Assembly: GCA_947488345.1 (NCBI GenBank)
Contig: CANKZQ010000001.1
Span: 660,518 to 724,517, forward strand
Length of the DNA stretch: 64,000 nucleotides
Direction: 5' to 3'
From: an uncultured Flavobacteriaceae bacterium
GTDB lineage: Bacteria; Bacteroidota; Bacteroidia; Flavobacteriales; Flavobacteriaceae
A model generated the notes under the pieces. It was not told where the DNA came from, ran no database searches, and worked only from the letters and a program-made list of their open reading frames with translations. The position numbers and the translations under genes are program-made. Below are positions 13,268-38,642 of the stretch, in pieces. The first letter of the stretch is position 1; each line of letters starts with the position of its first letter.

Positions 13268-13269
13268 GG

Positions 13270-13722
13270 ATGAGACGAGCAATATTTCCTGGATCCTTCG
13301 ATCCAATAACCTTAGGGCATTTCGATATCATTAAACGTGGTATTGATCTTTTTGATGAGATCATTGTTGCGATTGGTATCAACGCCGAAAAAAAATATAT
13401 GTTCAATTTAGAACAGCGTAAGGCCTTTATTGAAGAAGCTTTTAAAGATGAACCCAAGGTAAAAGTTGTAACTTATAAAGGGATGACTGTTGATTTTTGT
13501 AAAGAAATAGAAGCAAATTTCATTTTAAGAGGATTGCGAAATCCTGCAGATTTCGAATTCGAAAAAGCCATTGCCCATACCAATAGAAAGCTCACTAAAA
13601 TAGAAACGGTGTTTTTGCTAACGGCAGCCAGTACCTCCTTTATTTCTTCATCAATTGTGCGTGATGTGATTCGAAACAACGGTAATTTTAGCATTTTGGT
13701 ACCAGACAGCGTCAAAGTATAA
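13270..13722 (+). CDS. coaD: Phosphopantetheine adenylyltransferase
   Basis: FPGSFDPITLGH, RGLRNPADFEFE, ISSSIVRD. Confidence 0.97.
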   Translation: MRRAIFPGSFDPITLGHFDIIKRGIDLFDEIIVAIGINAEKKYMFNLEQRKAFIEEAFKDEPKVKVVTYKGMTVDFCKEIEANFILRGLRNPADFEFEKAIAHTNRKLTKIETVFLLTAASTSFISSSIVRDVIRNNGNFSILVPDSVKV

Positions 13723-13734
13723 GACGAGAACCTA

Positions 13735-22806: not shown

Positions 22807-23415
22807 ATGAAAAAATTCACTGTATTTACATTAGTATTGGTCATGAGTATCGCTACTATTTCTTGTAAAAAAGAAGCCAAAAAGGTCGAAGGCCCGCAAT
22901 TTTCGGTAGAACCAAAAACAGTCACCGTAAAATGGACAGGGTATAAAACGACGTCTAAAATTCCAGTAAATGGAACGTTTGAACTCCTTGAGGTCTCAAA
23001 TATTAAAGAAGCGCCTACAGCGATTGAAGCATTAAACGGCACCAAGTTTAGTATTCCGGTGAGTAGTTTAGTTTCGGGCGATGCAGATAGAGACAGTAAA
23101 CTAAAACAATTATTCTTTGGCGTTATGGATGCTACCTTATCATTGACTGGAACTGTGAATTTAGGAGAAGATGGTGCTGGGAATATCAACTTATCTATGA
23201 ATGGTGTTTCGAAGGAAATTCCTGTGACGTATACAGTTAAAGATCAAATTGTTGAATTAGAAGGTAAATTAGATATTGTAAATGATTTTAGTGCCCAGGC
23301 CGCATTAGAATCTATCAATACTGCCTGTTTAGAACTTCATAAAGGTCCTGACGGGGTTAGTAAAACATGGAGTGAAGTAGCCATTAGTGCGAGTGCTTAT
23401 TTAAAGAAAGAATAG
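22807..23415 (+). CDS. YceI-family lipid-binding lipoprotein
   Basis: Lipobox ISC; VKWTGYKT...VNGTF; RDSKL; C..LH.G.DGVSKTW. Confidence 0.8.
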   Translation: MKKFTVFTLVLVMSIATISCKKEAKKVEGPQFSVEPKTVTVKWTGYKTTSKIPVNGTFELLEVSNIKEAPTAIEALNGTKFSIPVSSLVSGDADRDSKLKQLFFGVMDATLSLTGTVNLGEDGAGNINLSMNGVSKEIPVTYTVKDQIVELEGKLDIVNDFSAQAALESINTACLELHKGPDGVSKTWSEVAISASAYLKKE

Positions 23416-23441
23416 CATACGCGAACCCTTGAATACATCAT

Positions 23442-23478
23442 AAAACCACTTTGCATGAACAAAGTGGTTTTTCTTTTT
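23442..23478 (+). terminator. Intrinsic terminator ending the rsfS-ftsH-...-yceI run; left boundary of the cassette array
   Basis: AAAACCACTTTG(23442-23453)/CAAAGTGGTTTT(23460-23471) plus T-rich tail. Confidence 0.85.
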
Positions 23479-23520
23479 AAAATAGTATCTTGCTAATATA
23501 TGGACATAGAGTTATTATTA

Positions 23521-23541
23521 ACCATAGCCCGTTCGTTAACC
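23521..23541 (+). repeat. attC-like element E0 (degenerate right-arm remnant)
   Basis: ACCATAGCCCGTTCGTTAACC; GTTCGTTAACC pairs 7/11 with CGATAGCTAAC at 24250-24260. Confidence 0.35.
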
Positions 23542-23563
23542 AAAATTAATTAAAACTAAAAAA

Positions 23564-24244
23564 ATGATTGAATATATAATTGAAAATAATTTGTATTTCA
23601 TATTACTAATCATTGTTGTGATTTTAGTTGTTGGATTTGTCTATATAAAGAATCTAAATAACGAAAAAGACAGAAAACTAGAGTTAGTTATAGGAATCAC
23701 AGCGGGCGTATCGATAATTATGGTGATGTATAATTTGATACTAAATACTCATTCTAACAATCGTATTGAAAAAAATAGAACAACACACAATACTTTAGAA
23801 AATATTCAAAGAAATTGGCTTTCTCCACAAGTTGATTTATCTCAGGCTTATCCTGAAGGGTTTTTTCTCTTTAAATCGTTAACTCCAGACGCCGATCATG
23901 GTGACTTTGAACCAACGTCTTATGACCCTGCCAAAAGAAATCAAATTGAAATAGCAAGTTCGATAAGAATATTCCAAGCGATGGAAGATTTTTTAACTCT
24001 TGGTTCTAATGACATTACTGGAAAAAGTATATGGATTAATAATTTTCTCATGTGGCTACAGTCACCTATTCTTAAAAAAAACTGGAAAGCACTTTCGTTT
24101 AATTATTCTAAAGACACCAGAGAAATGATTGACCGATTAATAAAAGAAAGTGATAAATTAGTTTTAATAAGACAGAAAAAAGGTAACCTAATGAAAAATG
24201 ATTATGACCATGTTTCTGAAAATTTTAAGGTTATTTTTCGCTAA
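23564..24244 (+). CDS. Hypothetical protein with two N-terminal TM helices (cassette 1)
   Basis: 226-aa ORF; no family recognised. Confidence 0.7.
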   Translation: MIEYIIENNLYFILLIIVVILVVGFVYIKNLNNEKDRKLELVIGITAGVSIIMVMYNLILNTHSNNRIEKNRTTHNTLENIQRNWLSPQVDLSQAYPEGFFLFKSLTPDADHGDFEPTSYDPAKRNQIEIASSIRIFQAMEDFLTLGSNDITGKSIWINNFLMWLQSPILKKNWKALSFNYSKDTREMIDRLIKESDKLVLIRQKKGNLMKNDYDHVSENFKVIFR

Positions 24245-24253
24245 TTGAACGAT

Positions 24254-24385
24254 AGCTAACAACATGTATAATTATTTGCTAATAGTGAATAAAGAGTGTC
24301 TCGAAAATTCTAACAGATTTCCTTACTCCTACGCTTTTTGTTATCTTAGTTGCTCATGTCACTAACCATGTACAAACCGTTACCA
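24254..24385 (+). repeat. attC-like element E1 (subfamily alpha)
   Basis: Left arm TAACAACATGTATAAT (24257); right arm CATGTACAAACCGTT (24367-24381); 80/107 identical to E8, ungapped. Confidence 0.8.
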
Positions 24386-24402
24386 CCAATTTGAATTCAA
24401 TA

Positions 24403-25386
24403 ATGAAAATCACAATTTTCGTAGTCGCCCTAATTCTATCACTAATTGTGAAATTATTAGTTGAAAAAAATAAGAAAAAATCGGATTCTATTAAAAAACG
24501 AATGGGAATCAAAGCTTTAGAGGCAAAATACGAAGAGGAGATTGGAGAAATAAAATCAAAAGAACAAATAGAAACCTTTTTTAAGCAATTTAATTTATCA
24601 GAACACTGGGAATCATTTGAGTCAAAAGTAAGGACTGAAATAAAAATAGATCCGTTTCAAAAAAACAATATTTCTTTAGGGAAATCAAAATTTGGCGGAC
24701 AACCAGATTTGCCAAAAAACATAGATTGGTTTAAAGAAAATAATGGAAAATCACTGTCTTTTATTGCTCAACTAAACTTGAGTGAAATCCAAATTCATGA
24801 TATTTCTCAAAGCTTACCTAAAACCGGTATTTTATATTTTTTTTATTCTTCAGAACAAGAAGCCTGGGGCTTTGATTATAAAGACAAAGATAAATTCAAA
24901 GTTTTTTACACTGAAGATGTAAATAATATTGAGCGAAAACCAATTCCTCAAGATTTAGTAGCATACAACATATATAAATCTTGCGAATTAAATTTTTCAA
25001 AATCATATAGTTTACCTAATTGGGAAAACGACTTTGTACTAGAACAATTAAGTAATTTTGAACAAGACATCTATGCCCTTTTAACTTACTCCGATATAAA
25101 CCATAAAATTCTTGGTTACTCAAACAATATACAAGGTGAAATGGAATTAGAATGTCAATTGGTGACAAATGGACTTTATTGTGGGGATCCTAGCGGATAC
25201 AATGACCCCAAAAGAAAAGAATTAGAGAAAGAAAAAACTGAATGGAAACTTCTATTGCAAGTCGACTCGGATGAAAGAGCAGAGATGATGTGGGGAGATT
25301 CTGGAACTCTATATTTCTGGATAAAACGAAAAGATTTAGAAAATTTAAATTTTGACAATGCTTGGTTTGCCTTGCAGTGTTATTAA
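24403..25386 (+). CDS. YwqG/DUF1963 family protein with N-terminal anchor (cassette 2)
   Basis: SKFGGQPDLP...W, LSFIAQLNLSE, GILYFFY, LLLQVDSD, MWGDSGTLYFWI...DL...NF...WF..QC. Confidence 0.9.
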   Translation: MKITIFVVALILSLIVKLLVEKNKKKSDSIKKRMGIKALEAKYEEEIGEIKSKEQIETFFKQFNLSEHWESFESKVRTEIKIDPFQKNNISLGKSKFGGQPDLPKNIDWFKENNGKSLSFIAQLNLSEIQIHDISQSLPKTGILYFFYSSEQEAWGFDYKDKDKFKVFYTEDVNNIERKPIPQDLVAYNIYKSCELNFSKSYSLPNWENDFVLEQLSNFEQDIYALLTYSDINHKILGYSNNIQGEMELECQLVTNGLYCGDPSGYNDPKRKELEKEKTEWKLLLQVDSDERAEMMWGDSGTLYFWIKRKDLENLNFDNAWFALQCY

Positions 25387-25395
25387 TAGAAAAAC

Positions 25396-25524
25396 TGGTG
25401 GTAACAACAGCTATAATTGCTTCGCTAGTTCGCATTGCTCGTGTCACTTGAATTAATTAACTTAGCTCAACGTCGGAAAATCTCATCTGATTTTCCGTAA
25501 ATGACCATTCACAAACCGTTAGCC
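25396..25524 (+). repeat. attC-like element E2 (subfamily beta)
   Basis: TGGTGGTAACAACAGCTATAAT ... CATTCACAAACCGTTAGCC; internal GGAAAAT/ATTTTCC stem; 33/37 identical to E6 core. Confidence 0.85.
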
Positions 25525-25549
25525 TTCATTATGACAAGACAACAAATTA

Positions 25550-26275
25550 ATGATTAAATTCTTTCGAAACATACGTCAAAACCTTCTCAATGAAGGAAAA
25601 ACAACCAAATACTTTAAATACGCCATAGGTGAAATTGTACTGGTAGTCATTGGTATTTTGATTGCATTGAGTATTAATAATTGGAATGAATCGCATAAAC
25701 AAAAGAAGGTTTTAAGTAACATTTATGGAATTGTAGCTGAAGACCTAAAGAAAGATTCTTTGGAAGTAGACATGGTGTTGAATTTCATGCTCGATAGAAA
25801 AAAGATATTTGAAAAAATTTTAAATGACTCGTTAAATTTAAAAGACGTCAAGGAAAATGGGATGATCCTCTCAATATTAACCGATGTCAGAGTATTAAAC
25901 ATTGAAAAGAGAGGTTATAATTTGCTACGTAATTTTGAAGATAACATGGTCAGTAAAAATGACTCTTTAGCCTTTAGAATTATCAATTTTTATGCAAGTT
26001 CTATTTTCTTTACTGAAAAAGTGGAAACAATAATTATCGATGATTTAATAAAAACCAATGATCTTTGGAAGAATCAGAAATGGTATACCAATATTATGCA
26101 AAATAAAAATGACGAAAGGTTTATTGACTATATGTTGACAAATCAAGAATTCAAAAATTTATGTGCTTTTCGGTATAGCATGTTTCATGAAAATTACGCA
26201 CCAACGATCGAGCAATATAAGCAAGGAAGCAAACGAATTTTGGAGGCGATAAAAACCAGACTCGACAAAAAATAA
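25550..26275 (+). CDS. DUF6090-family protein (cassette 3)
   Basis: MIKFFRNIRQNLL.EGK..KY.KYAIGEIVLVVIGILIALSINNWNE N-terminus. Confidence 0.85.
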   Translation: MIKFFRNIRQNLLNEGKTTKYFKYAIGEIVLVVIGILIALSINNWNESHKQKKVLSNIYGIVAEDLKKDSLEVDMVLNFMLDRKKIFEKILNDSLNLKDVKENGMILSILTDVRVLNIEKRGYNLLRNFEDNMVSKNDSLAFRIINFYASSIFFTEKVETIIIDDLIKTNDLWKNQKWYTNIMQNKNDERFIDYMLTNQEFKNLCAFRYSMFHENYAPTIEQYKQGSKRILEAIKTRLDKK

Positions 26276-26281
26276 TAAAAT

Positions 26282-26307
26282 AACGAAAGCCTAACAACGT
26301 GCATAAT
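26282..26307 (+). repeat. attC-like element E3 (left arm only)
   Basis: GCCTAACAACGTGCATAAT; next ATG only 19 nt later, right arm absent. Confidence 0.65.
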
Positions 26308-26326
26308 TAATTCTAAAAAATATAAT

Positions 26327-26761
26327 ATGGCAACAATCAATACTTATTTAAGCTTTATGGGTAACACTGAAGAAGCATTTGAATTTTATAAATCAGTATT
26401 TGGTGTTGAATTCGTTGGTGGCATAAGACGCTTTGGAGATATGCCAAATAATGAATTAATGTCGGACGCGGACAAGAGAAAAGTAATGCATGTCGGTTTA
26501 CCAATAGGACCTGGGAATTTCCTTATGGGAACAGATGCACTTGAATCTATGGGGCAATCGCTAACATTTGGAAATAATTTTCATATATCTATTAGTCCAG
26601 AGAGTAAAGAAGAAGCCATTAAACTATTCGATGGACTTTCATCAGGAGGAACGGTAACATCGCCACTAGAAGAGACTTTTTGGGGTGCGTACTTTGGGGC
26701 ATTTACAGATAAATTCGGAGTACAATGGATGGTAAATTATCTTCAACCAGTCAATAATTAA
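26327..26761 (+). CDS. VOC/PhnB-like glyoxalase-superfamily protein (cassette 4)
   Basis: YLSFMGNTEEAFEFYKSVFG, KVMHVGL, FWGAYFGAFTDKFGVQWMVN. Confidence 0.92.
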   Translation: MATINTYLSFMGNTEEAFEFYKSVFGVEFVGGIRRFGDMPNNELMSDADKRKVMHVGLPIGPGNFLMGTDALESMGQSLTFGNNFHISISPESKEEAIKLFDGLSSGGTVTSPLEETFWGAYFGAFTDKFGVQWMVNYLQPVNN

Positions 26762-26769
26762 AAAACGAA

Positions 26770-26934
26770 ACACAACAACGACTATAATCTTTTCACCAGT
26801 TCGCTGCGCTCGTGCTATTATTAAGGCCCCAAAGGGTTGGTGCACCAATGAACTATAAAAGTAAGAGAATATTTTACTCGTATTTTTTTGAAATACCATT
26901 GTAAAATACGAACTTGAGATATTAATAGCTGTAC
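26770..26934 (+). repeat. attC-like element E4 (beta-like start, degenerate right arm)
   Basis: ACACAACAACGACTATAAT; ACCAGTTCG...GCTCGT shared with E2/E6; ends GCTGTACGTAATTT. Confidence 0.6.
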
Positions 26935-26966
26935 GTAATTTAAAACTCTTAAAAAATGACTATTAA

Positions 26967-27443
26967 ATGAGGCGTTTAACTTTTATTTCATTATTTCTAA
27001 CCTTATCTATTTCTAACCTTTATTCTCAAGAGATTCAATTAAAAAAAACCTTTTTTGGTTACAAGTTTGTTCAAAATAATGAGACAATCAAAATGAATCA
27101 AGTATACAAAAGCATGAAACCAAATAATCAAGCTTATAAATTGATGAAAAAAGCTAAATCTAACAATACAATAAGCGGAATTATTGGTTTTGTAGGTGGA
27201 GGAATGATGGGATGGCCAATCGGACGAAGTTTCGCTGGCGAAAAATTTAATTGGACTTTATTCGGAATTGGAGCTGGGATCGCTGCTATCAGTATTCCTA
27301 TTTCTGGAAAATCAATAAAAGACACCAAAAAGGCTATTGATATTTATAATTCTTCATTAAACAAAACAACTCAAATTAATCATAATTTGCAATTGAAAAT
27401 CATTGCGAATAAAAATGGTATCGGACTATCTGTTAACTTTTAA
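26967..27443 (+). CDS. Hypothetical secreted/membrane protein (cassette 5)
   Basis: Signal peptide; glycine-rich hairpin GFVGGGMMGW...FGIGAGIAAI; C-terminal GLSVNF. Confidence 0.75.
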   Translation: MRRLTFISLFLTLSISNLYSQEIQLKKTFFGYKFVQNNETIKMNQVYKSMKPNNQAYKLMKKAKSNNTISGIIGFVGGGMMGWPIGRSFAGEKFNWTLFGIGAGIAAISIPISGKSIKDTKKAIDIYNSSLNKTTQINHNLQLKIIANKNGIGLSVNF

Positions 27444-27503
27444 AAACTACGTATAAAAACGACTATAATCGCTAAGAAGTAAACCATAACTCAGCCGCTG
27501 GTG
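27444..27503 (+). repeat. attC-like element E5 (internally shortened, both arms)
   Basis: TAAAAACGACTATAAT (27454) and CATAACTCAGCCGCT (27485-27499) only 15 nt apart. Confidence 0.6.
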
Positions 27504-27524
27504 GCAATTACAAAAAATAGAATT

Positions 27525-27965
27525 ATGATTCATCGTTTAAAATTCACCATTGACATCGATGCCGAAAAATCTAAGATCTGGAAAGCACTTTGGGACGAGA
27601 ACTCATATCGTTCATGGGCGAGTGTTTTTTTTGATGGGTCTTATGCAATATCTGATAATTGGAGAGAAGGCAGTAAAGTACATTTTCTTGGACCTGATCA
27701 GAGCGGAATCTATAGTTTAATCGAAAAGCACATTCCCAATGAATTTATTGAATTTAAACACATTGGAAACGTATTAGAAGGAAAGGAAAAACCGCTAGAC
27801 GAAGAAACGAAAAAATGGTCTGGAGCTACTGAAATATACAAGATTGTAAAAGGGGATGTTATGAATACGCTAAAGGTTGAAATTGATGTTATGAATGAAC
27901 ACCTGGAATTTATGACAAATAAATTTCCCAAGGCTCTTGAAAAAGTCAAAAACAACTGCCGCTAA
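27525..27965 (+). CDS. SRPBCC/AHSA1-like protein (cassette 6)
   Basis: IDAEKSKIWKALWD...Y..W...F..GS...SDNWREGSKVHFL; FPKALEKVK; stop codon lies inside left arm of E6. Confidence 0.8.
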   Translation: MIHRLKFTIDIDAEKSKIWKALWDENSYRSWASVFFDGSYAISDNWREGSKVHFLGPDQSGIYSLIEKHIPNEFIEFKHIGNVLEGKEKPLDEETKKWSGATEIYKIVKGDVMNTLKVEIDVMNEHLEFMTNKFPKALEKVKNNCR

Positions 27966-28115
27966 GAATCTTTATCATTAATTGCTACTGAATTCCCTCA
28001 CAGATCTTTCTAGCACCAGTTCGTATTGCTCGTTTCACTTATATTAATTAACTTCGTCGTACGCCCTAAAATCCCTAAGAATTTTCCGAAATTAACCATA
28101 TACAAACCGTTGACA
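27954..28115 (+). repeat. attC-like element E6 (subfamily beta)
   Basis: TAAGAATCTTTATCAT (27963) ... CATATACAAACCGTT (28097-28111); core matches E2. Confidence 0.8.
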
Positions 28116-28144
28116 ATAATTAAACCAGATAGATAAACTCAAAA

Positions 28145-28996
28145 ATGAATCGTGAAATAATCGACATACATGATTATACCATTTTATTGGAAGAAGCTTC
28201 TACTGATAACAAATTAATTGATTCATGTTTTTTTGACGAACCAGTCATAGCTATTGCCTTTTATGGTGCCGGTGATGTTGGTCTAAAAGTAAAGTTTGAC
28301 GAAAAAACGAAAGAATTCTATCATACCAAAGGCATGGTTTTATCTTTCTACGCTGATGATAAAGTCGAATTTGAGCATCAAGTCTCAAATTTAAAGCCTC
28401 TTCAATGTTTGGTGATTGCAACTACCGTTAAAAATATAGACAATTTACCAAGTGGTGAAAGCCAGTTTTTAGAAAAGTTTTTGCATCAATTAGTACACCC
28501 CAAAGATCATTATGTTGAAGGTCCGGTTTTTAATATGAGCCCAGAAATGTTTCTATTAGTTGAACAATTCTTTAACAATACGTTCGAAGGTGAACTTAAA
28601 ATGATGTTCTACAAAAGCCATATCACAGCGTTGCTTTCTCATTATTTTGGGCAATTGGCAACACAACAAAACACAAAACTTAATACTTCACAACTAGAAA
28701 AAATTAATCTAGCCCAAGAAATTTTAGTATCCGATTTAGAAAATCCACCTTCCCTAACAGAATTGGCCCACAGAATTGGTACCAACACCAATAAACTTAA
28801 AATAGAATTCAAAGCGCAGTTTGGTGTTCCTGTTTTCAAATACCTACAAAATGAACGTTTAAAAAAAGCTTACAATTTAATAAAGAACGAAGGAAAGACT
28901 ATTCAAGAAGCCGCTTGGACTGTGGGTTATGATAGTTTAGGTTCTTTCTCTAACGCTTTTGAAAAAAAGTTTGGTTATCGACCTAGCCAAGCATAA
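28145..28996 (+). CDS. AraC-family transcriptional regulator (cassette 7, gene 1)
   Basis: PPSLTELAHRIGTNTNKLKIEFKAQFG and AAWTVGYDSLGSFSNAFEKKFG double HTH. Confidence 0.93.
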   Translation: MNREIIDIHDYTILLEEASTDNKLIDSCFFDEPVIAIAFYGAGDVGLKVKFDEKTKEFYHTKGMVLSFYADDKVEFEHQVSNLKPLQCLVIATTVKNIDNLPSGESQFLEKFLHQLVHPKDHYVEGPVFNMSPEMFLLVEQFFNNTFEGELKMMFYKSHITALLSHYFGQLATQQNTKLNTSQLEKINLAQEILVSDLENPPSLTELAHRIGTNTNKLKIEFKAQFGVPVFKYLQNERLKKAYNLIKNEGKTIQEAAWTVGYDSLGSFSNAFEKKFGYRPSQA

Positions 28997-29062
28997 AATT
29001 CTTTTCGAATAAATCATAATTCTTTTTAAATAAGTCACTGGTTTAGAACCACAATAGATTTG
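28997..29062 (+). promoter_or_regulatory. Tandem 20-bp direct repeat with 21-bp period (putative AraC operator) and -7 element
   Basis: AATTCTTTTCGAATAAATCA (28997) / AATTCTTTTTAAATAAGTCA (29018), 17/20; TAGATTTG downstream. Confidence 0.65.
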
Positions 29063-29086
29063 TGTCATAATTAAAAAACAAAAATT

Positions 29087-29479
29087 ATGATTAGTAAAAA
29101 TTTATTTAGCATTCTATGCGCCATTTTAGTTTGGATTTTAGGAGTTGCCTTTTACCTCTTATCATTTTATATATCCATTTTAGAAAATCCTGATCTACAA
29201 TCTAATATTACACTCGCTTTGGGCATTATACCTAGCGCAGGTTTAGGAACTTATTTGTTTTATAGAAATAGCTATATAAAACCATCTTCATTGGCTCTTA
29301 CATTCGTAATAGTAGCTACTGTATTGGATATATTGATAACGGTTCCCGTATTTATAATTCCAAATGGTGGTAGTTATTCAAATTTTTTTGGTGATCCCAT
29401 GTTCTACACCATCATAGTTGAATTCTATTTTATTGTATTCTATTTTGGAAATCATTTAACCAAAAAAATGAAAGCATGA
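29087..29479 (+). CDS. DUF5367-like small membrane protein
   Basis: Four TM helices; LD..ITVP.FIIP.GGSY..FF motif. Confidence 0.7.
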   Translation: MISKNLFSILCAILVWILGVAFYLLSFYISILENPDLQSNITLALGIIPSAGLGTYLFYRNSYIKPSSLALTFVIVATVLDILITVPVFIIPNGGSYSNFFGDPMFYTIIVEFYFIVFYFGNHLTKKMKA

Positions 29480-29955
29480 AAACCTTCACTCTTTTTATCA
29501 CGGTTTTATTGAATGCACTTTCTACAGGCTTTTTTTTCGCCTGGTCAGTTTCGGTCATCTTAGGAACAAAAAGAATCAGTGATTTAACTTATCTAGAAAC
29601 GATGCAACATATCAATAAAGAAATCTTGAACCCTGCATTCTTCATCGTATTCTTTGGAAGCCTGATAACATTGATTATAACGACGTGTCTACAATTTAAC
29701 AACAAAGTTATGTTTTGGTTGGTCTTGGCATCCGCGATCATTTATCTCATTGGAACTTTTGGTATTACTGCCTTTAAGAATGTTCCTTTAAACAATGAGC
29801 TGGATATATTGAAAATTACAAAACTTAGTTTATCAGAGTTAAAGAATTTTAGAACCTATTATGAAAGTACTTGGAATCATTATCACAATATTAGAACTAT
29901 TTCAAGTATGATTTCATTCATCTTATTACTTATATCAATATTTATTAAAAAATAA
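29476..29955 (+). CDS. DUF1772 / anthrone-oxygenase-like membrane protein
   Basis: GFFFAWS, MQ.IN..ILNPAF, NVPLNNEL, WN..H..RT motifs. Confidence 0.85.
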   Translation: MKTFTLFITVLLNALSTGFFFAWSVSVILGTKRISDLTYLETMQHINKEILNPAFFIVFFGSLITLIITTCLQFNNKVMFWLVLASAIIYLIGTFGITAFKNVPLNNELDILKITKLSLSELKNFRTYYESTWNHYHNIRTISSMISFILLLISIFIKK

Positions 29956-29972
29956 TTTTAACACAATTCATT

Positions 29973-30809
29973 ATGAAAACGAACATTTTAGTTATCGGGG
30001 GAACCGGAAAAACCGGTCGTCGAGTAATAACACAATTACAAAATAAAGGAATCGAACCTAGAGTTGGTTCAAGACAAGGAACACCAAATTTCGATTGGAA
30101 CAACAAAGATACTTGGGTAAAAACGCTTCAGGGTATAGAAAAAATGTATGTTACCTATTATCCTGACTTGGCCGTTCCAGGTGCTAAGGAAGCCATACAG
30201 AGTTTAACTTATCTCGCCAAAGAATTAGGAGTTAAAAAAATGGTTTTGCTTTCAGGAAAAGGTGAAACCGAAGCAGAAGCTTGTGAAAAAATTGTGATGG
30301 ATTCTGGTATGAACTATACCATCGTTAGAGCTTCATGGTTTAACCAAAATTGGAGTGAAAGCTTCTTTTTAGAACCTATTCTATCTGGAGAAGTAGCACT
30401 ACCAATGTCTAATGTTTTAATCCCATTTGTGGATGCAAATGATATTGCTGAAGTTGCAGCGACTGTTTTACTAGACGATCGTTTCAATGGTGAAATTATT
30501 GAGGTAACCGGACCAGAACTAATCACTTTTAAAGATATTGTAAATATCATTTCAAAGACCAGTAAGAGAAATTTGAATTTTTACGATATTACACTAGAGC
30601 AGTATATCGATGGTATGAAAAAAATGCAAGTTCCTAATGACGTTGTTTGGTTAATTGAATATTTATTCAGTCATGTTTTAACAAATCCGAAAAATCAATT
30701 AGTCGCTCATGATATTGAACGAGTTTTGGGAAGAAAAGCAAAAACATTTTTAGAATATGCGCAAGAAACAGCCAAAACTAGTATTTGGAATCAGGTAAGC
30801 GTTACATAA
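29973..30809 (+). CDS. NmrA-family NAD(P)-binding protein
   Basis: ILVIGGTGKTGRRV, FDW, RASWFNQNWSE, FVDANDIA. Confidence 0.9.
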   Translation: MKTNILVIGGTGKTGRRVITQLQNKGIEPRVGSRQGTPNFDWNNKDTWVKTLQGIEKMYVTYYPDLAVPGAKEAIQSLTYLAKELGVKKMVLLSGKGETEAEACEKIVMDSGMNYTIVRASWFNQNWSESFFLEPILSGEVALPMSNVLIPFVDANDIAEVAATVLLDDRFNGEIIEVTGPELITFKDIVNIISKTSKRNLNFYDITLEQYIDGMKKMQVPNDVVWLIEYLFSHVLTNPKNQLVAHDIERVLGRKAKTFLEYAQETAKTSIWNQVSVT

Positions 30810-30941
30810 TTATTGCGAGCAGCGTACATAAGTAATAGCGATTTGAGTCTTGACTCAAGTCGCTATACTTTTATTTTGTAATTTACTTTCCGAAAAGTAG
30901 CCTATAAATACTCATTACTAATCATACACAACCCGTGAGCA
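30808..30941 (+). repeat. attC-like element E7 with strong internal hairpin
   Basis: GAGCAGCGTACATAAG (30817) ... CATACACAACCCGTG (30923-30937); 15-bp stem 30835-30866 with T-rich tail could also terminate the NmrA operon. Confidence 0.75.
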
Positions 30942-31051
30942 ACAAGCTAAAAATAAACCATCATTACATGAAAAACATGATCAATGTATCTTTCAAAAAA
31001 ATAGTTCCAATTATAGTCGGCATTTAAATTAATTAGTATATCAATATTTGG

Positions 31052-32185
31052 ATGAAAGAAGAAATAATAAAACTAAGGAGAGAACTTCATGCAAACCCTG
31101 AATTATCTTGTTTTGAACATGAAACAGCAAAAAGAATTCAAAGGTTTATAAAGAAACATAACCCGACTCACATCGTTGAAAATTTAGGAGGTACCGGGTT
31201 AGCCGCTATCTATAGGCTTCCAAATAAAGGCAAGTCTATAACAATCAGATGTGAATTAGATGCATTACCAATTCAAGAAGAAAATCAATTCGACCACAAA
31301 TCAAAAAAAAAGGGCATCTCACATAAATGCGGTCATGACGGTCATATGGCCATCGTTTCGGGGTTGATCTTTTGGCTGAAAAATCAATCGTTTAATGCCG
31401 GAGAAATTATATTATTATTTCAGCCAGCAGAAGAGAATGGAAAAGGCGCAAATCTTGTAATAAAAGACGAAAGGTTTAAAAATCTTAAAACCGATTTTGT
31501 ATTTGCCTTGCACAACATACCAAAAGAACCATTACATAATATTATTATAATGAAAAATGGGTTTTCGGCTGAAGTTCAGAGTTTTATAATAAGAGTAAAA
31601 GGAAAAAAATCACATGCCGCAGAACCTGAAAATGGGATAAATCCAGCACTCGCAATTTCTAAGATCATTTCAACCCTTTCAACATTAGAAGTAATCAAAC
31701 CCGAGGATAAAAATTTTACGTTAATAACACCTGTACATATCAATATGGGACAAATAGCCTATGGTATTTCTCCAGAAAATGCTGCTTTACACTATACGAT
31801 GAGAACATGGAATAGAGAAAGAGCTACGACCTTAAAAGCTCAAATAGAACTACTCGTTCAGAAGATATGTCAATTGCACAAACTAACATTCGAAATAGAG
31901 TGGCTTGAATATTTTCCTGCTGCTACTAATAATATTGAAAGCAATAATTATGTTTTAAAAGCTGCTAAAGAAAACAATTTCAAAATTACTGAAAGACCTT
32001 ACCCCTTTAAATTTGGTGAAGATTTTGGATGGTTTTCAAGAGAATATAAAACAGCCATGTTTGGATTAGGTGCAGGCATAAAAACTCCAGCTTTGCACAA
32101 TTCTGATTATGATTTTCCCGATGAAATAATTAAAACTGGAATTACAATGTTTACATCCATAATCTCAACTATCATGAATGAATAA
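31052..32185 (+). CDS. M20D-family amidohydrolase
   Basis: RRELHANPELS, RCELDALPI, HKCGHDGH, FQPAEE, GEDF, LHN. Confidence 0.92.
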   Translation: MKEEIIKLRRELHANPELSCFEHETAKRIQRFIKKHNPTHIVENLGGTGLAAIYRLPNKGKSITIRCELDALPIQEENQFDHKSKKKGISHKCGHDGHMAIVSGLIFWLKNQSFNAGEIILLFQPAEENGKGANLVIKDERFKNLKTDFVFALHNIPKEPLHNIIIMKNGFSAEVQSFIIRVKGKKSHAAEPENGINPALAISKIISTLSTLEVIKPEDKNFTLITPVHINMGQIAYGISPENAALHYTMRTWNRERATTLKAQIELLVQKICQLHKLTFEIEWLEYFPAATNNIESNNYVLKAAKENNFKITERPYPFKFGEDFGWFSREYKTAMFGLGAGIKTPALHNSDYDFPDEIIKTGITMFTSIISTIMNE

Positions 32186-32191
32186 TCAACA

Positions 32192-32325
32192 GAATAGCAT
32201 AGGGATTACAATTCATTGCTAAAAGCTTATAAAGAGTACTTCGCAAATCCTAACGAATTTTATAACTCCTGCCTTTTTTGTTATCTTAGATGCTTACTTA
32301 ACGAATCATAGACAAACTGTTAAGA
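32192..32325 (+). repeat. attC-like element E8 (subfamily alpha, left arm degenerate)
   Basis: 32216-32322 is 80/107 identical to E1 24276-24382; right arm CATAGACAAACTGTT. Confidence 0.8.
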
Positions 32326-32388
32326 TTCATTTTGGCAAATTGTCATTGAAATTAAGACTATACGTTTATACATACTGAAACTGGAATT

Positions 32389-32739
32389 ATGCTAGTCAAT
32401 ATCAATCCCAAATTACCCATGCGTGATAAAAATGTTACACGTGATTTTTATGTAGATAAGTTAGGGTTTAAAGAAATAGGAGATTACGAAGGTTACTTAA
32501 TGGTTCAAAAAGATAAAATAGAAATTCACTTCTTTGAATTTAAAGAACTTGATCCTAAAGAGAATTACGGACAAGTTTATATTCGTACTGACAATATTGA
32601 TGATTTTTACCAAGCATTATTAGTGAATAAAATTAGAATCCATCCTAACGGAAAATTAGAATCCAAACCTTGGGGGCAAAAAGAATTCTCGATACTTGAT
32701 CCTGATACAAATCTATTGACATTTGGTCAAAGTAATTAA
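32389..32739 (+). CDS. VOC/bleomycin-resistance-like protein
   Basis: PKLPMRD...DFY...LGF, IHFF, VYIRTDNID, KPWGQKEFSILDPDTNLLTFGQ. Confidence 0.9.
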   Translation: MLVNINPKLPMRDKNVTRDFYVDKLGFKEIGDYEGYLMVQKDKIEIHFFEFKELDPKENYGQVYIRTDNIDDFYQALLVNKIRIHPNGKLESKPWGQKEFSILDPDTNLLTFGQSN

Positions 32740-32740
32740 A

Positions 32741-32861
32741 AAACGACAACTAACAATTACCATGATTGATTCGTTCGCCATAATTGCAAACGCGAATGGT
32801 CCCCAACTAAATTTTTGTTAACTTAGTTATTTACGAATCTATCATATAACCACTCTTATAA
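32741..32861 (+). repeat. attC-like element E9 (degenerate)
   Basis: TAACAATTACCATGAT (32751); TTTTTGTTAACTTAGTT shared with alpha type; right arm CATATAACCACTCTT. Confidence 0.6.
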
Positions 32862-32874
32862 AATTATAATTCCT

Positions 32875-33381
32875 ATGAAAAACCTACTCCTTATCGCTTT
32901 TTTAAGTGCTTTTTGTCTTAGCTTAAACGCTCAAGAATTTGAAATTCCTGATACTATTGCGCTTAATAATGAGGCCGACTATAAAAAACATGAAACTAAT
33001 GTATTAAATGCTATCAACTGGGTACAGGCAACACCCATAGGTGAGCAAAAAAATAAACGAAAAGAAGTAAACGCCTTTCTCTTTAAATGGATGTCGGGAA
33101 GCCCAAACGTAACCATTGAATTATCGCAAGACCTAGTGCCATTTATGGACTGCTCTGATTGCCTGGTATCTTTTATGAATGGTTGGACTAAATTTAGTTT
33201 GGAAAATAATTACTCTAAAAATAAACTCGATTGTGCTCTTGCAGCAACAAATCATACTATAGAGTTTTACACAAAAAACAAAAATGAATTAGGAAAGATA
33301 GATTCCATTGAAAAACTATCTAAACGAAAAAGTAAGGGAAAATTAAAAGCCTACATCAAATCGAAATTACCTACAAAATGA
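32875..33381 (+). CDS. Hypothetical secreted protein
   Basis: Signal peptide (SLNAQ); helical 'RKEVNAFLFKWMSGSPNV' motif. Confidence 0.75.
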   Translation: MKNLLLIAFLSAFCLSLNAQEFEIPDTIALNNEADYKKHETNVLNAINWVQATPIGEQKNKRKEVNAFLFKWMSGSPNVTIELSQDLVPFMDCSDCLVSFMNGWTKFSLENNYSKNKLDCALAATNHTIEFYTKNKNELGKIDSIEKLSKRKSKGKLKAYIKSKLPTK

Positions 33382-33654
33382 CAATGCGCCAATCTCTATA
33401 ACTAGGGTTGATGAATTATTAAAAGATAGAATGTAACAAACGGAAAACCTTTTGCAATCTATTAATTGCTAACTATACCTAAGAAAAAATCGATAGTACT
33501 TAGTATAGGGTAAATTCCATACTAGTTCCGTTGAAGAAAGAAAGATTAATTGGACGGAACTGATTTGTATGAACATGTTCGAGTGTGATTTATAACTTAC
33601 AAAATCGTCTTAATTATACGTAGGCGATTACCTAGAAAAACCTTTAACGCTAAC
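33379..33654 (+). repeat. Degenerate intergenic element(s) with three hairpins ending in an attC-like right arm (E10)
   Basis: Stems at 33473/33499, 33518/33554, 33603/33621; CCTAGAAAAACCTTT (33631-33645) matches the right-arm consensus 12/15. Confidence 0.4.
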
Positions 33655-34278
33655 ATGACTTGTACACTTTGCAACTCCGAACTCATTCGTAAAAAGGATA
33701 CCTTATATTATGACTGTACTACCTGCAAAGCACTTATTAAAGACGCTGCGTATTACTTAACGGCCGAGAAAGAAAAAGCTAGATATGAAGCGCATAACAA
33801 CGATGTTAATGATCTTCGGTATCAAAATTTTGTCATGCCAATTACTGATTATGTCTTTGCGCACTTCTTACCTACTCACAAAGGATTAGATTTTGGAAGC
33901 GGCACCGGCCCAGTTGTTTCGAGTGTACTATCGAAAAAAAAATATGATATTCAGCAATATGATCCGTTCTTTGCTCCAGATAAACGTGTCTTGAACAACA
34001 GGTTTGATTATATTGTTAGTTGTGAAGTATTTGAGCATTTTCACAACCCCAATCAAGAAATTAATAGACTCGCATCTATACTAAAACCAAATGGAGCATT
34101 ACTGCTCATGACAATGCTTTATAACGACAAGATTGATTTCGACACTTGGCACTATCGTAAAGATCCGACACATGTCTTTATTTATAGAAAGGAAACCATC
34201 AATTTTATCGCAAAGACGAAGAACTTTGACGTAGAAATCTTAACAGATAGATTCATCACATTTAGAAAAAGAACGTAA
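33655..34278 (+). CDS. Class I SAM-dependent methyltransferase with N-terminal Zn-ribbon
   Basis: CxxC...CxxC; EKARYEAHNND; GLDFGSGTGP; YDPFF; CEVFEHF; WHYRKDPTH. Confidence 0.9.
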   Translation: MTCTLCNSELIRKKDTLYYDCTTCKALIKDAAYYLTAEKEKARYEAHNNDVNDLRYQNFVMPITDYVFAHFLPTHKGLDFGSGTGPVVSSVLSKKKYDIQQYDPFFAPDKRVLNNRFDYIVSCEVFEHFHNPNQEINRLASILKPNGALLLMTMLYNDKIDFDTWHYRKDPTHVFIYRKETINFIAKTKNFDVEILTDRFITFRKRT

Positions 34279-34364
34279 GGTAAATCTGGTATTGTACTAT
34301 TTTTATAGTACACGCTAAAATGAATTATAACGTAAAAAGACTCGCTACTTTTATAAGCTCCTAG

Positions 34365-34547
34365 AGAATACGAACTTTAAGTGCCGCTGATTTAGAACAG
34401 ATACGAATTGAAAGAACAGAAGTCAGGCAAAGTAAAAAATTAGGCAACTACCTCAATAGAATTGCTTATCATATATCTGTTCATACGGGTCAGATGCTTA
34501 GCTATTTTAGAATAGTGAATATCGAACGCCCACAAATTTCGGAGTAA
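34365..34547 (+). pseudogene. DinB-family remnant (C-terminal ~60 codons)
   Basis: Frame reads RIRTLSAADLEQIRIERTEVRQSKKLGNYLNRIAYHISVHTGQMLSYFRIVNIERPQISE*; in-frame TAG at 34362, no start codon. Confidence 0.65.
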
Positions 34548-34690
34548 ATAAACGTAAACAAACATAAGATCGAAGAAATAGAAAATCCATTTTATTTTTG
34601 ATATGGCGATGAAACTATGCACATGAAAAGCACTCATTCAGTAATAAATGATATCTTTAGACATCTTTCACTAGAAAGTGAATTATTTTT

Positions 34691-35977
34691 ATGTCAAAAA
34701 TAACCCCACAAATTTCATCTAAAAAAAATCGTGCCATATCGATGTTTGCACTCATCATCGCTGGAGAGGCTATTTTTTTGCTGCCTTTCATTTTAATGCG
34801 GGTGTTCAAACCCGTAATTAGAGAAGCGTTGGTGCTTTCTGATGCTCAAATCGGTGATGCACAAGCTTTATACGGTATTACTGCGGTTATCTCCTATTTT
34901 TTTGGTGGTTTTATTGCCGATAAATGGGAAGCAAGAAAGTTACTATCCGTCTCTCTAGTGTTAACTGCCCTTGGCGGATTTTGGATGACTTTGATTCCTT
35001 CGCTAGTCGGATTAAAAATTTTATACGCTTTTTGGGGTGTTTCTACCATCTTCCTTTTTTGGGCAGCCCTAATAAAAGCAACAAGACAATGGGGCAATGA
35101 ACACAATCAAGGTTTATCTTTTGGTCTATTAGATGGCGGACGCGGTTTTTTTGCCGCCTCTATTGCCCTCTTCGGTGCCACGATTTTAAGTCTATTATTT
35201 CCCGAGAAGGGCGATACAATTTCTTTCGATGCCAAAGTAACCACACTCCAATATATTATAGGTGCCGTAACTACGATTGTTTTTCTTGTGGCACTACTTG
35301 TATGGATCGTATTACCCAAAAGTGGGCCTATTCAAACAGATTCAGATGAATTTCGCTTTGATATGAAGAAAGCACTTTCTCTACTTACTAAGCCTATTGT
35401 TTTATATCATTCGTTGATTATTTTTTGCGCCTATTGCGCCTATAAATTAACAGGAACTTACGGTACCTACGCAAAAGATGTTTGGGGCTATTCTTTAGAA
35501 GAAGCTACCTACTTTGCTGTATTAATCCAATTTTTAAGGCCATTAGCCGCCATATCTGTAGGATGGATCGCCGATAAGTTCATTCCTTCAAGATTGATCG
35601 TACCATGTTTTACCGTTTTGATTTTAACTTCGGCAGTTTTAGGATTGGGTATATTTAAAGACCAACCCATTTTTTTATCCTTTACTTTTTTCATTTTTAT
35701 GGCGCTGGGGACGTACGCATTAAGAGGCTTGTACTTCGCCATTATTGAAGAAACAAAAACACCCATTCAGCTCACAGGTACCTTAGTAGGTATTATATCG
35801 GTTGTTGGTTTTGCACCCGATATTTTTATGCCCTTGTTTGTTGGTTATATGTTAGGAAGCAATCCAACTATTGCTGAATATCAGAACTTATTTACGTGGT
35901 TCACTATCATTCCGATAGTAGGTTTATTGGCCACTATCGCATTTCGAAAAAGTATCCAAGATAAAAGCATCCGATAA
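34691..35977 (+). CDS. MFS transporter
   Basis: About 12 TMs; GGFIADKWEARKLL motif A; GLLDGGRG; repeat motif GWIADKF. Confidence 0.9.
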   Translation: MSKITPQISSKKNRAISMFALIIAGEAIFLLPFILMRVFKPVIREALVLSDAQIGDAQALYGITAVISYFFGGFIADKWEARKLLSVSLVLTALGGFWMTLIPSLVGLKILYAFWGVSTIFLFWAALIKATRQWGNEHNQGLSFGLLDGGRGFFAASIALFGATILSLLFPEKGDTISFDAKVTTLQYIIGAVTTIVFLVALLVWIVLPKSGPIQTDSDEFRFDMKKALSLLTKPIVLYHSLIIFCAYCAYKLTGTYGTYAKDVWGYSLEEATYFAVLIQFLRPLAAISVGWIADKFIPSRLIVPCFTVLILTSAVLGLGIFKDQPIFLSFTFFIFMALGTYALRGLYFAIIEETKTPIQLTGTLVGIISVVGFAPDIFMPLFVGYMLGSNPTIAEYQNLFTWFTIIPIVGLLATIAFRKSIQDKSIR

Positions 35978-36011
35978 GGGATGCTTTCATATATTTATTT
36001 CGAAATTTTCT

Positions 36012-38642
36012 TTATTGCAAACTCGCTAAACTTGCTTTCAACGTTTCTATTTTAGCCAAAGCATCTGCTTCTTTATTCTTTTCACTAGCAACCACTTGCT
36101 CTGGCGCATTGTTCACGAAGCGCTCGTTGGCTAGTTTCTTTTGCACTGAATTCAAGAACCCTTGTGTGTAATTGAGCTCTTCGGTTAATTTTTTAACCTC
36201 GTCTTCAACATTAATAGTGCCAGCCACAGGGATGAAATATTCATTCGATTTCACTCGAAACGTCAAGGCACTAGCTACCTTTTCTGTGATATAAGTTAGC
36301 GATGAAATATTACCAAGCTTGCTAATAACAGTATCTAAATCGCTTGTCATTTGCTCATTATTCAAAACGAAAAACTCGATACTATCTTTAAAAGAAATGT
36401 TTTTTTCTTTACGGATGGTACGGATACCAGCCACAACATTTGTAGCAAAATCGAAATCAGCAATTAATTGTTCATTCACCTGTTTCTTCGAAGGATAATT
36501 GGCAACAATCAATGCCGCTTCAGGTGTACGCTCCTCTATATATTGCCAAATCTCTTCAGTCAAAAACGGCATAAAAGGATGTAATACCTTTAAGTTGTTC
36601 TCAAAAGCACCAATAATTGCTGTATACGTAATCGCATCGACAGGTTGCTCATAACCTGGCTTCAAAATCTCTAGCAACCACGAAGCAAAGTCATCCCAAA
36701 TTAGTTTATAAATAACCATTAAAGCATCTGACAATCTGTATTTACTAAAATGATCTTCAATTTCGGCTAAGGCCTTTTGAAACTTACTCTCATACCAATC
36801 GATTGCTATTTTCGAAGCTTCAGGCTGCTCAATTTCAGAACTTACCTCCCATCCTTTTACCAGTCGAAAAGCGTTCCAAATTTTGTTGGCGAACTGTTTT
36901 CCTTGTTGACATAAATCTTCATCGAACATCAAGTCATTTCCCGCTGGTGAGCTCAATAGCATACCCACGCGAATACCGTCAGCACCATAGGTCTCTATTA
37001 AATCTAAGGGATTCGGAGAATTTCCTAAAGACTTAGACATTTTTCTTCGTTGTTTATCTCGAACTATTCCGGTGAGATACACATTACTAAACGGTTTATC
37101 ACCCTTATATTCATAGCCGGCAATAATCATACGTGCCACCCAAAAAAATAGGATTTCTGGTGCAGTCACCAAATCATTTGTTGGATAATAATAATTAATT
37201 TCTTCATTTTCGGGATTTCGAATACCATCAAAAACACTCATCGGCCAGAGCCATGAAGAAAACCATGTATCGAGTACATCACCATCTTGTCTTAAATCGG
37301 TCATGGCTAGAGATGCATTCTTCGTCTTCTCCTGCGCTAATTTTAAGGCCTCTTCTGGTGTTTCTGCTACTACAAAATCTTCTTTCCCATCTCCATAAAA
37401 ATAGGCAGGAATTTGCTGCCCCCACCACAACTGACGAGAGATGTTCCAATCACGAACGTTTTCCATCCAATGACGGTAGGTATTGATAAATTTATCTGGA
37501 AACAATTGCACCTCCTTGTTCAAAACAGCATCTAAGGCAGGTTTTGCCAAATCTTTCATATTTAAGAACCACTGATCGGATAATCTTGGTTCTATAACAG
37601 CTTTTGTTCTTTCTGACGTTCCAACTTTATTGAGGTGTTGCTCAATTTTCACCAAGTATCCCTTTTCCTCTAATTCTTTTGATATTTCCTTACGTACAAC
37701 AAAACGATCTTTTCCCTCATAATGCAATCCAAAACTATTCAATGTTGCATCTTCATGAAAAATATCGATAACTTCTAATTGATGTTTATCTCCTAAGTTC
37801 TTATCATTCTCATCGTGCGCTGGTGTTACTTTTAAACAACCAGTACCAAATTCTATATCCACATAATCATCTTCAATAATAGGAATCACGCGATTGCATA
37901 AAGGTACAATGGCCTTCTTTCCGCGTAAGTGCGCAAAACGTTCATCATTCGGATTGATACAAATAGCTGTGTCTCCTAAGATTGTTTCAGGGCGCGTTGT
38001 AGCAATCGTTACCTTTTCGGTACTCCCTTCAATATCATACTGCAGATAGTATAAATTACCTTGACGCTCTTCATGAATAACCTCTTCATCTGAAAGGGTA
38101 GTTTTCGCTTCAGGATCCCAATTTACCATGCGATACCCTCTATAGATCAATCCTTTCCTATATAAATCAACAAATACTTTGATAACAGAAGCGCTCATGT
38201 GATCATCCATCGTGAATTTGGTTCTATCCCAATCACAAGAGGCGCCTAACTTTTTTAATTGCTCTAAGATTACACCTCCATACTCATGTGTCCAATCCCA
38301 AGCATGCTTTAAAAACTCTTCTCTTGATAATTCATTTTTATCAATTCCTTGTTCTTTGAGTTTAGCAACCACTTTCGCCTCTGTGGCAATTGAGGCATGA
38401 TCTGTACCAGGTACCCAACAAGCATTTTTACCTTGCATTCGGGCACGACGAATCAATACATCTTGAATTGTATTATTCAACATATGTCCCATGTGCAAGA
38501 CTCCTGTAACATTTGGTGGAGGAATTACAATCGTATAAGGTTCTCTATCATCAGGAGTCGAGTGAAAATACTTATGCTCCATCCAATAGCTATACCATTT
38601 ATCCTCTACTGTACTGGCATTATATGTTGCTGGAATATTCAT
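36012..38642 (-). CDS. valS: Valine--tRNA ligase
   Basis: [33 protein letters not shown]-terminal coiled coil. Confidence 0.98.

Follow-up and report, generated by a model that had tools for sequence, protein, structure and literature searches.

We examined a 64,000-nt stretch of DNA from an uncultured Flavobacteriaceae bacterium (contig CANKZQ010000001.1, positions 660,518–724,517; hereafter the window), in which a block at 28109–30937 holds intact genes for an AraC-family regulator, a DUF5367 protein, a DUF1772 (anthrone-oxygenase-like) protein, and an NmrA-like protein. We conclude that this block is very probably a member of a family of multigene mobile cassettes which reside in integron-like arrays of marine Flavobacteriaceae. 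The mobile unit would consist of a 36-nt leader, the AraC-family gene, an operator and promoter driving the DUF5367, DUF1772, and NmrA genes, and a single ∼130-nt hairpin site at the 3' end which includes the terminator. An original prediction, made from the letters of this DNA only, had proposed a self-regulated four-gene operon packaged as one cassette, and the elements it named (the block ends, the four open reading frames, the −7 box, and the repeats) are all present where it put them.

A four-gene block with fixed end points in unrelated genomic neighborhoods

The comparison set comprised 80 related loci, with one genome scanned per species, and most of these loci hold the same four genes in the same order. 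In about 30 genomes, from at least 15 genera of Flavobacteriaceae, similarity begins at the same G/TT (the slash marks the boundary) 36 nt before the AraC start codon, which is also where the boundary GTT at 28109 stands in the window. Thirty of the 80 loci read .../GTTGGCAATAATTAAACTCGATTGAGATAATTCATAAGA-ATG upstream of AraC, conserved to the right of the GTT and unrelated to its left; together with the window, this gives 31 sequences in which the leader is conserved from the boundary triplet onward. In about 20 of the ∼30 genomes, the block also ends at a G/TT, the closing triplet of a conserved hairpin site (∼130 nt) located past the NmrA stop codon, and the 3' element conserved in these ∼20 loci runs TAA-CTATTGCCAAC-AAC-GTGTATAAGTAATAGCG-(terminator hairpin)-...-CGCTACTACTCATACAC-GAACAC/GTT. 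On both sides, homology starts and stops at GTT, as it does at integron cassette boundaries, which fall at the conserved G/TT of the R' core. The check proposed with the original prediction, that homologous blocks elsewhere should keep these boundaries in different neighborhoods, was thereby borne out.

The neighborhoods themselves are unrelated. When the 1.5-kb flanks of 30 cassette-type loci were clustered, they fell into 28 unrelated clusters on each side, with upstream neighbors that include an M49 peptidase, a SulP transporter, a helicase, and a nitrilase, and the housekeeping flanks of the window were found at none of the related loci. The copies in Wocania arenilitoris (L016) and a Tenacibaculum isolate (L024) are 99.3% identical over 2,835 nt, and the Winogradskyella sediminis copy is 96% identical to both, so that the same cassette is present in different genetic contexts. 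At the 5' junction of the L016/L024 pair, identity was 19/60 outside versus 37/40 inside; at the 3' junction it was 57/60 inside versus 12/40 outside; and in each case the break fell at GTT. The mobile unit includes the 3' site and not the 5' one, an asymmetry which is typical of integron cassettes and would be unexpected for composite transposons or pairs of miniature inverted-repeat transposable elements (MITEs).

These junctions bear on whether the block could be an ordinary chromosomal operon which lies between repeated intergenic elements and was spread by homologous recombination or by larger elements such as integrative and conjugative elements (ICEs). Many homologues are indeed plain chromosomal operons, no recombinase adjoins any array examined, and at two loci (L040 and L044) a two-gene version stands beside an integrase of the conjugative transposon (CTn) type. 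However, homologous recombination needs shared flanks, whereas the homology between genera ends at a single triplet on both sides and the flanks are unrelated in 28/30; the unit has the asymmetric signature of an integron cassette, with a 3' site but without a 5' one; and the end complementarity and stem covariation described below play no part in such a model. We consider this explanation very unlikely.

Each cassette start is complementary to the 3' site of the same cassette

The outermost box of the 3' site, R'' (TATTGCCAAC), is the reverse complement of the start of its own cassette (GTTGGCAATA). This match to the cassette's own end amounts to 9–12 of 13 positions at a constant offset in most loci, against 4–8 of 13 for the match of R'' to the bases which follow the site in situ (L024, at 10/13, is the sole exception). 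The two ends also covary, reading ATTAGTAAT and ATTACTAAC in L030 and GTTAACAAT and ATTGTTAAT in L028. In the window, GTTGACAATAATT begins at 28109, and the first ∼12 bases of the leader (TTGACAATAATT) form the cassette's share of the R' box, with their complement at 30808–30820; there AATTATTGCGAGC begins at 30808, so that its first bases are shared with the TAA stop codon of NmrA (30807–30809). Recomputing this match returned the 10/13 of the original prediction, with 8 positions contiguous, as compared with 7/13 between AATTATTGCGAGC and the in situ right end GTGAGCAACAAGC (30935). By a binomial estimate from base composition, the chance of at least 10/13 is ∼3e-4 at a fixed offset and ∼0.01 over the 36 offsets scanned, and the offset seen in the window recurs in ∼20 other genomes. 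A cassette start which complements its own R'' is the signature of a circular intermediate.

Alternatively, the ∼130-nt element could be an autonomous, MITE-like insertion with terminal inverted repeats, whose ends were mistaken for cassette ends. Its repeats are imperfect and inverted (R'' with R', L'' with L'), it occurs in families (termed alpha and beta) beside different genes, and either type can accompany the same gene block, all of which would suit an insertion of this kind. A MITE carries both of its ends, though, while the outer repeat here is complementary to sequence 2.8 kb away, at the opposite end of its own gene block, and not to the bases which follow it in situ, and no MITE copy travels with the genes at the 5' break point in homology. 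This makes a MITE-like origin of the ends extremely unlikely.

The 3' site has a conserved predicted fold which has decayed in the window copy

When the cassette's own start is appended, the bottom strand of the consensus site has a predicted fold (z = −6.75) in which an R stem of 10 bp is separated from an L stem of ∼19 bp by an asymmetric internal loop, with 5 nt on one side and 2 nt on the other, which gives the cassette family consensus the R''-L''...L'-R' layout of a hairpin site. We assessed covariation in 14 sites, which fall into three types by sequence: alpha, beta (with boxes L'' GTGTATAGCTCATTGCGG and L' CCGCAACGAGCCATACAC), and a third type in L002. Across the 27 proposed pairs, 79.9% of cells were paired, versus 24–46% with slid partners; compensatory changes were present in 19 cells, and none of 500 shuffles reached the observed covariation score. 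At two positions (columns 23/58 and 28/53 of alignment A1), 12–13 of the 14 sites, alpha and beta, have A.C mismatches on the top strand which are G.T on the bottom strand. These positions would favor folding of the bottom strand, and they may be a strand-choice feature which replaces the extrahelical bases of classical attC sites. The center of the alpha site holds a 14-bp terminator-like hairpin and T-run, and the hairpin at 30835–30866 in the window is probably the transcription terminator of the operon.

Taken together, these features would fit a pathway like that of integron cassettes, in which the site folds as single-stranded DNA (R stem, asymmetric spacer, L stem) and is cleaved between its G and TT by a tyrosine-type recombinase whose gene lies elsewhere; in the window, this would place the crossover within 28109–28111. 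The unit would then be excised as a circle whose first bases complete its own site, with a junction reading ...CATACACGAACACG/TTGGCAATAATT, and the circle would be reinserted at another G/TT. Such an enzyme, the circle, and the passage through single-stranded DNA are all features we infer.

In the window copy, the 3' site aligns with the consensus, but the cores seen as GCCAAC and GTT in relatives have become GCGAGC and GTG, and a hand count gives only 10/17 paired positions for its L boxes. Its stems are lost, and it has ceased to form a long hairpin when folded. Because its own site has decayed in this way (AAC to AGC, GTT to GTG, loss of stems), the window copy is probably fixed in place and no longer mobile. 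Strains whose copies have intact ends include Wocania arenilitoris HMF6543, Winogradskyella sediminis DSM 28134, and Flavobacteriales bacterium ALC-1, and the complete genome of Seonamhaeicola sp. MEBiC1930 (NZ_CP104270) also has an intact copy. The proposal that the block is packaged as one cassette holds for the family, whose members share the same ends, while the right-hand site in the window has degenerated.

A regulator, its putative operator, and a target promoter travel together

The coordinates of the block and its surroundings are collected in Table 1. The regulator has the C-terminal helix-turn-helix which defines the AraC/XylS family, and its N-terminal ∼200 residues matched nothing in a Pfam scan. 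It has 1,226 homologues, the best 120 of which are 83–91% identical and come from many genera. Two of the other proteins were scored against narrower families: the DUF1772 protein reached 147 bits against the NCBIfam ChrI-like family, under its 275-bit cut-off, and the NmrA-like protein reached 123 bits against the EasG-like subfamily, also below the subfamily cut-off.

Table 1. Features of the block and its surroundings in the window
Feature	Position	Strand	Details
Housekeeping genes rsfS, ftsH, cdsA, psd, ACBP gene, YceI gene	up to 23415		
attC-like site, beta type	27966–28108	+	Intergenic sequence closing the cassette before the block; ends ...AACCATATACAAACC just before the G at 28109
5' cassette boundary, GTT	28109–28111	+	Similarity to ∼30 related loci begins here; sequence upstream unrelated between genomes
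Conserved cassette leader	28110–28144	+	Consensus GTTGGCAATAATTAAACTCGATTGAGATAATTCATAAGA, common to cassette-type loci
AraC/XylS-family transcription factor, 283 aa	28145–28996	+	Pfam HTH_18, E = 5e-16, 59 bits versus cut-off of 33.6
Two 18-nt direct repeats (DR1, DR2), putative AraC operator	28997–29014 (AATTCTTTTCGAATAAAT) and 29018–29035 (AATTCTTTTTAAATAAGT)	+	Starts 21 nt apart
Bacteroidota-type −7 box TAGATTTG (TAnnTTTG)	29056–29063	+	24 nt before the DUF5367 start codon
DUF5367 small membrane protein, 130 aa	29087–29479	+	Pfam PF17329, E = 3.6e-6; kept in most loci
DUF1772/anthrone-oxygenase-like membrane protein, 159 aa	29476–29955	+	Pfam PF08592, E = 2e-13
NmrA-like NAD(P)-binding reductase, 278 aa	29973–30809	+	Pfam NmrA, NAD_binding_10
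Recombination site of the block, alpha type, decayed	30808–30937	+	Aligns to positions 1–130 of the 131-nt consensus, score 83
R''	30808–30820	+	AATTATTGCGAGC
L''	30824–30840	+	
Terminator-like hairpin	30835–30866	+	14 pairs, then T-run; within the recombination site; same hairpin kept in alpha-type sites of relatives
L'	30910–30929	+	
Spacer	30930–30934	+	
End triplet GTG	30935–30937	+	GTT in relatives
valS	36012–38642	−	

TAnnTTTG is the consensus of Bacteroidota sigma-A promoters, and AraC/XylS activators bind operators which directly abut the promoter. In the 90 nt which separate the AraC and DUF5367 genes, the sequence is arranged as an AraC/XylS activator site directly next to a Bacteroidota promoter, and the regulator would activate the downstream promoter from the two direct repeats, which abut its −33 region. 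The original prediction of an internal −7 promoter and operator-like repeats was matched by the −7 box and by the 18-nt repeats beginning at 28997 and 29018; three matches to the repeat pattern occur in the window versus 0.29 expected. The region is conserved in 80/80 loci, including Flammeovirga (order Cytophagales). DR1 was found in 80/80 loci and DR2 in 78/80, with a start-to-start spacing of exactly 21 nt in 78/78; the TAnnTTTG box was present in 80/80 loci and stood 19 nt after DR2 in 77/78. In cassette copies, the regulator, the operator repeats, and the target promoter travel together, in keeping with the earlier suggestion that this system mobilizes whole regulatory modules.

The description of the block as self-regulated goes beyond what the sequences show. 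The cassette supplies a regulator along with the conserved operator and promoter from which the three genes downstream would be expressed, but neither the 36-nt leader nor the rest of the cassette was seen to contain a promoter of the Bacteroidota type for the AraC gene. Self-regulation is therefore not established, because transcription of the AraC gene may come from upstream of the cassette. As a mere curiosity, the R' box at the cassette start reads TTGACA, with TAAACT 18 nt later (28110–28139), a 10/12 match to a sigma-70-type promoter; such matches are no more numerous in the region than expected by chance, and Bacteroidota promoters differ.

The families of the four proteins, together with the genes added in longer versions, suggest that the operon is probably an inducible module for redox, quinone, or electrophile handling or detoxification. 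The genes inserted in these longer versions encode a cytochrome c, a CMD/AhpD-like protein, and an NADPH-dependent FMN reductase, and the second cassette of L025 holds a DoxX gene.

Cassettes of different gene content share the same ends

The length from GTT to GTT varies with gene content, and the versions share the same ends. A two-gene form with AraC and NmrA measures 1,946–1,949 nt; a three-gene form (L032), ∼2,400 nt; the four-gene form seen in the window, 2,823–2,844 nt in ∼20 genomes; a five-gene form which adds the FMN reductase (L022), 3,436 nt; and a six-gene form which adds the cytochrome c and CMD/AhpD-like genes (L042 and L043), 3,931–3,934 nt.

Two loci show unusual arrangements. 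L025 was first read as a 6-kb cassette, a reading we rejected, as it holds two related cassettes in tandem (9806–13941), the first of which ends in a frameshifted NmrA pseudogene with an alpha site. The second also begins with TTGGCAATAATTA, repeats the TAGATTTG promoter region, has NmrA as an intact gene, and encodes a Crp-like regulator, an unknown 212-aa protein, DoxX, and an FMN reductase. In the three-gene version of L032, a stretch of 20 nt (ATGCTCAATTATAAAACCAA) occurs twice, after the 5' boundary (GCT; 7940–8000) and again after the 3' boundary (GTT; 10360–10400), in place of the usual leader; both flanking sites are beta-type. This duplication is not predicted by the standard G/TT exchange.

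The operon is most likely older than the cassette

We built a tree of AraC and NmrA and rooted it on Flammeovirga. The deep branches (Flammeovirga, Tenacibaculum, Kordia, Flagellimonas, Hyunsoonleella, and several metagenome-assembled genomes [MAGs]) all lack cassette ends, whereas nearly all copies with cassette ends fall into one clade with 98% support, in which at least 15 genera are mixed on very short branches. Within this clade, some copies have one or both ends decayed, as in the window. The copies without cassette ends share downstream synteny within genera (for example, at six Tenacibaculum loci), and in the basal relatives the operon, operator and promoter included, is an ordinary chromosomal operon in a syntenic setting. 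For this reason, the operon seems to have been captured whole; going by these sequences, it is most likely older than the cassette and was not assembled from single-gene cassettes. On the simplest reading, a resident operon underwent a single capture and spread thereafter.

The opposite route, in which the four genes are a fusion of former single-gene cassettes whose internal sites were lost, is known from clinical integrons, where fusion by attC loss has been documented (PMC8876359). Gene content within the block does differ between genomes, and a likely example of such a fusion lies in the window itself, at the truncated left half-site between the DUF6090 and glyoxalase genes described below. 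In the block, however, the gaps amount to 90 nt occupied by the operator and promoter, a 4-nt overlap of the DUF5367 and DUF1772 genes, and 17 nt, which leave no room for an internal site. None was seen, as had been predicted, and no site remnants were seen in the internal gaps of any of the 80 loci. Furthermore, the same gene order and 90-nt operator and promoter region exist in non-cassette, syntenic settings in basal lineages (Flammeovirga, Tenacibaculum, and Kordia), and chance fusion would be unlikely to join a regulator with its target promoter. Fusion is thus a most unlikely origin for the block, and we favor capture of the intact operon.

At seven loci (L005, L008, L027, L031, L037, L045, and L067), we found the left half of an alpha site (R'', L'', and the terminator hairpin) without L' and R', which may mean either that the site grew around the operon's terminator or that these are truncated sites. 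The non-cassette copy at L073 has a similar terminator (AGCGATTTGG...CCAAATCGCT). We tentatively raise the possibility, which we think somewhat less than even, that the family records the birth of a gene cassette, in which a resident, regulated chromosomal operon, of the kind that Tenacibaculum, Kordia, and Flammeovirga still have in place, gained a folded site around its own terminator and then spread through at least 15 genera as a 2.8–3.9-kb passenger of an integron-like carrier without an adjacent IntI. This flavobacterial carrier would then accept more than small cassettes of one promoterless gene.

A non-cassette operon was also found on a contig labeled as an uncultured Alteromonas MAG (L052). 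Its AraC protein is 83% identical and it groups with Bacteroidia contigs in the tree, and it is probably a binning error rather than a gammaproteobacterial transfer.

Observations that weigh against a mobile cassette

Several results weigh against our interpretation. Since the 3' site of the window copy has degenerated, this genome offers no evidence of mobility at present. No recombinase gene was found in the 64-kb window; nor, when the loci were searched for tyrosine recombinases with a box-II regular expression and tblastn, was any found within 8 kb at 78 of the 80, the only hits being the CTn-type integrases at L044 and L040. Circle or empty-site joints were likewise not seen in the short Logan contig fragments from runs holding the window block or the Wocania copy; these runs are metagenomes or isolates and are present as assembler contigs only. 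The predicted fold has none of the single-base extrahelical bulges in the L stem which mark classical attC sites, and a covariance model of the shortened site recovered no site in the window at E < 0.88. Finally, the order in which the operon came first and the cassette later depends on rooting the tree on Flammeovirga.

Regarding the covariance model, the other sites of the window are too decayed for it, or their central parts are too long. An ungapped weight matrix of the L'-spacer-R' end performed no better than on shuffled sequence, because the length of the spacer varies.

The integrases at L044 (6589–7812) and L040 (3239–3850) are tyrosine integrases of the Bacteroidota CTn/ICE type (box HSARHTFAT). 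We rejected them as the cassette recombinase, as they are absent from the other 78 loci. They lie upstream of the two-gene AraC-NmrA version, which keeps the 5' GTT boundary and is without a 3' site; this two-gene module may have hitchhiked on an integrative element. Because no integrase was found, our use of "integron" is a statement on how the system works and not on family membership.

The surrounding array

The window is low-GC (∼33%) chromosomal DNA of a marine flavobacterium, with best protein matches in Winogradskyella and Psychroserpens. Between the housekeeping genes and valS lie small accessory genes, all co-oriented. The intergenic elements of this array share a left end (...TAACAAC..CTATAAT) and a right end (...AACCAT.TACAAACC/GTT...). 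Complementarity specific to each cassette is also seen in successive units, where GTTACCACC (24382) pairs with GGTGGTAAC (∼25398) and GTTAGCCTTCATTATG (25522) pairs with AATAACGAAAGCCTAAC (∼26280). A repeat family, D2, connects 28018–28122 with 25427–25531, and the beta-type core of the site which precedes the block (GTTCGC..GCTCGTGTCA, with a CGGAAAATC..GATTTTCCG hairpin) recurs in L015, L017, and L046. An Rfam scan of 23000–36000 returned no match, and exact-protein look-ups of the two window genes adjoining the block also returned none.

Between the DUF6090 gene (25550–26275) and the glyoxalase gene (26327–26761), there is only a left half-site (26276–26326, ...GCCTAACAACGTGCATAATTAATTC), the R'' of which complements the cassette start at 25522. 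These genes look like a two-gene cassette formed by truncation of an internal site. Other cassette genes of the array, at 25550–26275 and 32389–32739, were met again in the arrays of other genomes: the DUF6090 protein has an 89% identical homologue in L032, and a glyoxalase has homologues of 74% identity in L013 and 68% in L057. By sequence, a cassette pool appears to be common to several genera.

Discussion

In textbook accounts, integron cassettes are small and, for the most part, single genes without a promoter. Our block departs from this: it holds four genes (two to six in relatives) with an internal operator, promoter, and terminator, and flavobacterial cassettes of 2.8–3.9 kb with four to six genes and a dedicated transcription factor differ accordingly from the classical kind. 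Published surveys describe cassettes as usually having one open reading frame and sometimes two (PMC8618304), give ∼2 kb for the largest known, and call the mechanism by which cassettes arise unknown (PMC4889954). A scan with IntegronFinder 2.0 found in Bacteroidetes only In0 elements and one complete integron, in Salinibacter (PMC9024848). Into a phylum deemed nearly integron-free, our data bring ∼30 genomes in which attC-type recombination evidently acted in the recent past (99.3% identity between genera), and this makes the missing recombinase worth finding.

The cassettes also resemble integron cassettes and attC sites, as known from sedentary chromosomal integrons and clusters of attC sites lacking integron integrases (CALINs; Cury et al. 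2016, PMC4889954). Both form co-oriented arrays with one imperfect-palindrome 3' site per unit; the sites share the R''-L''...L'-R' layout, the AAC and GTT cores, an asymmetric unpaired spacer, and the G/TT boundary (PMC4889954, PMC8618304); in both, the cassette start completes its own site, and the same cassette is found in unrelated neighborhoods. In both, there are also arrays with no integrase beside them. The differences from integrons lie in the flavobacterial host, the lack of an IntI in the window or within 8 kb of the 80 loci, and a long L stem without the extrahelical bases of classical attC sites.

Cassettes with their own promoter and fused cassettes do exist in classical integrons, as one- or two-gene cases (cmlA, toxin-antitoxin, blaOXA-10/aadA1; PMC8876359), and they resemble ours in that expression is independent of position and a single attC moves more than one gene. 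Classical fused cassettes are, however, accidental fusions without an internal attC, whereas here a pre-existing regulated operon, which also exists outside cassettes, was apparently captured intact. An operon present in both cassette and non-cassette states gives a before-and-after pair for asking how a site joins a gene block, and a whole sensory and regulatory circuit which moves with its effector genes as one cassette widens what a single transfer step can carry. As for the circuit itself, it resembles AraC/XylS-activated operons in the C-terminal double helix-turn-helix of the regulator and in two direct-repeat half-sites 21 nt apart (two helical turns) which abut the upstream element of the promoter, and it differs from them in an N-terminal sensor domain which matches no family, a TAnnTTTG promoter, and the mobility of the whole circuit.

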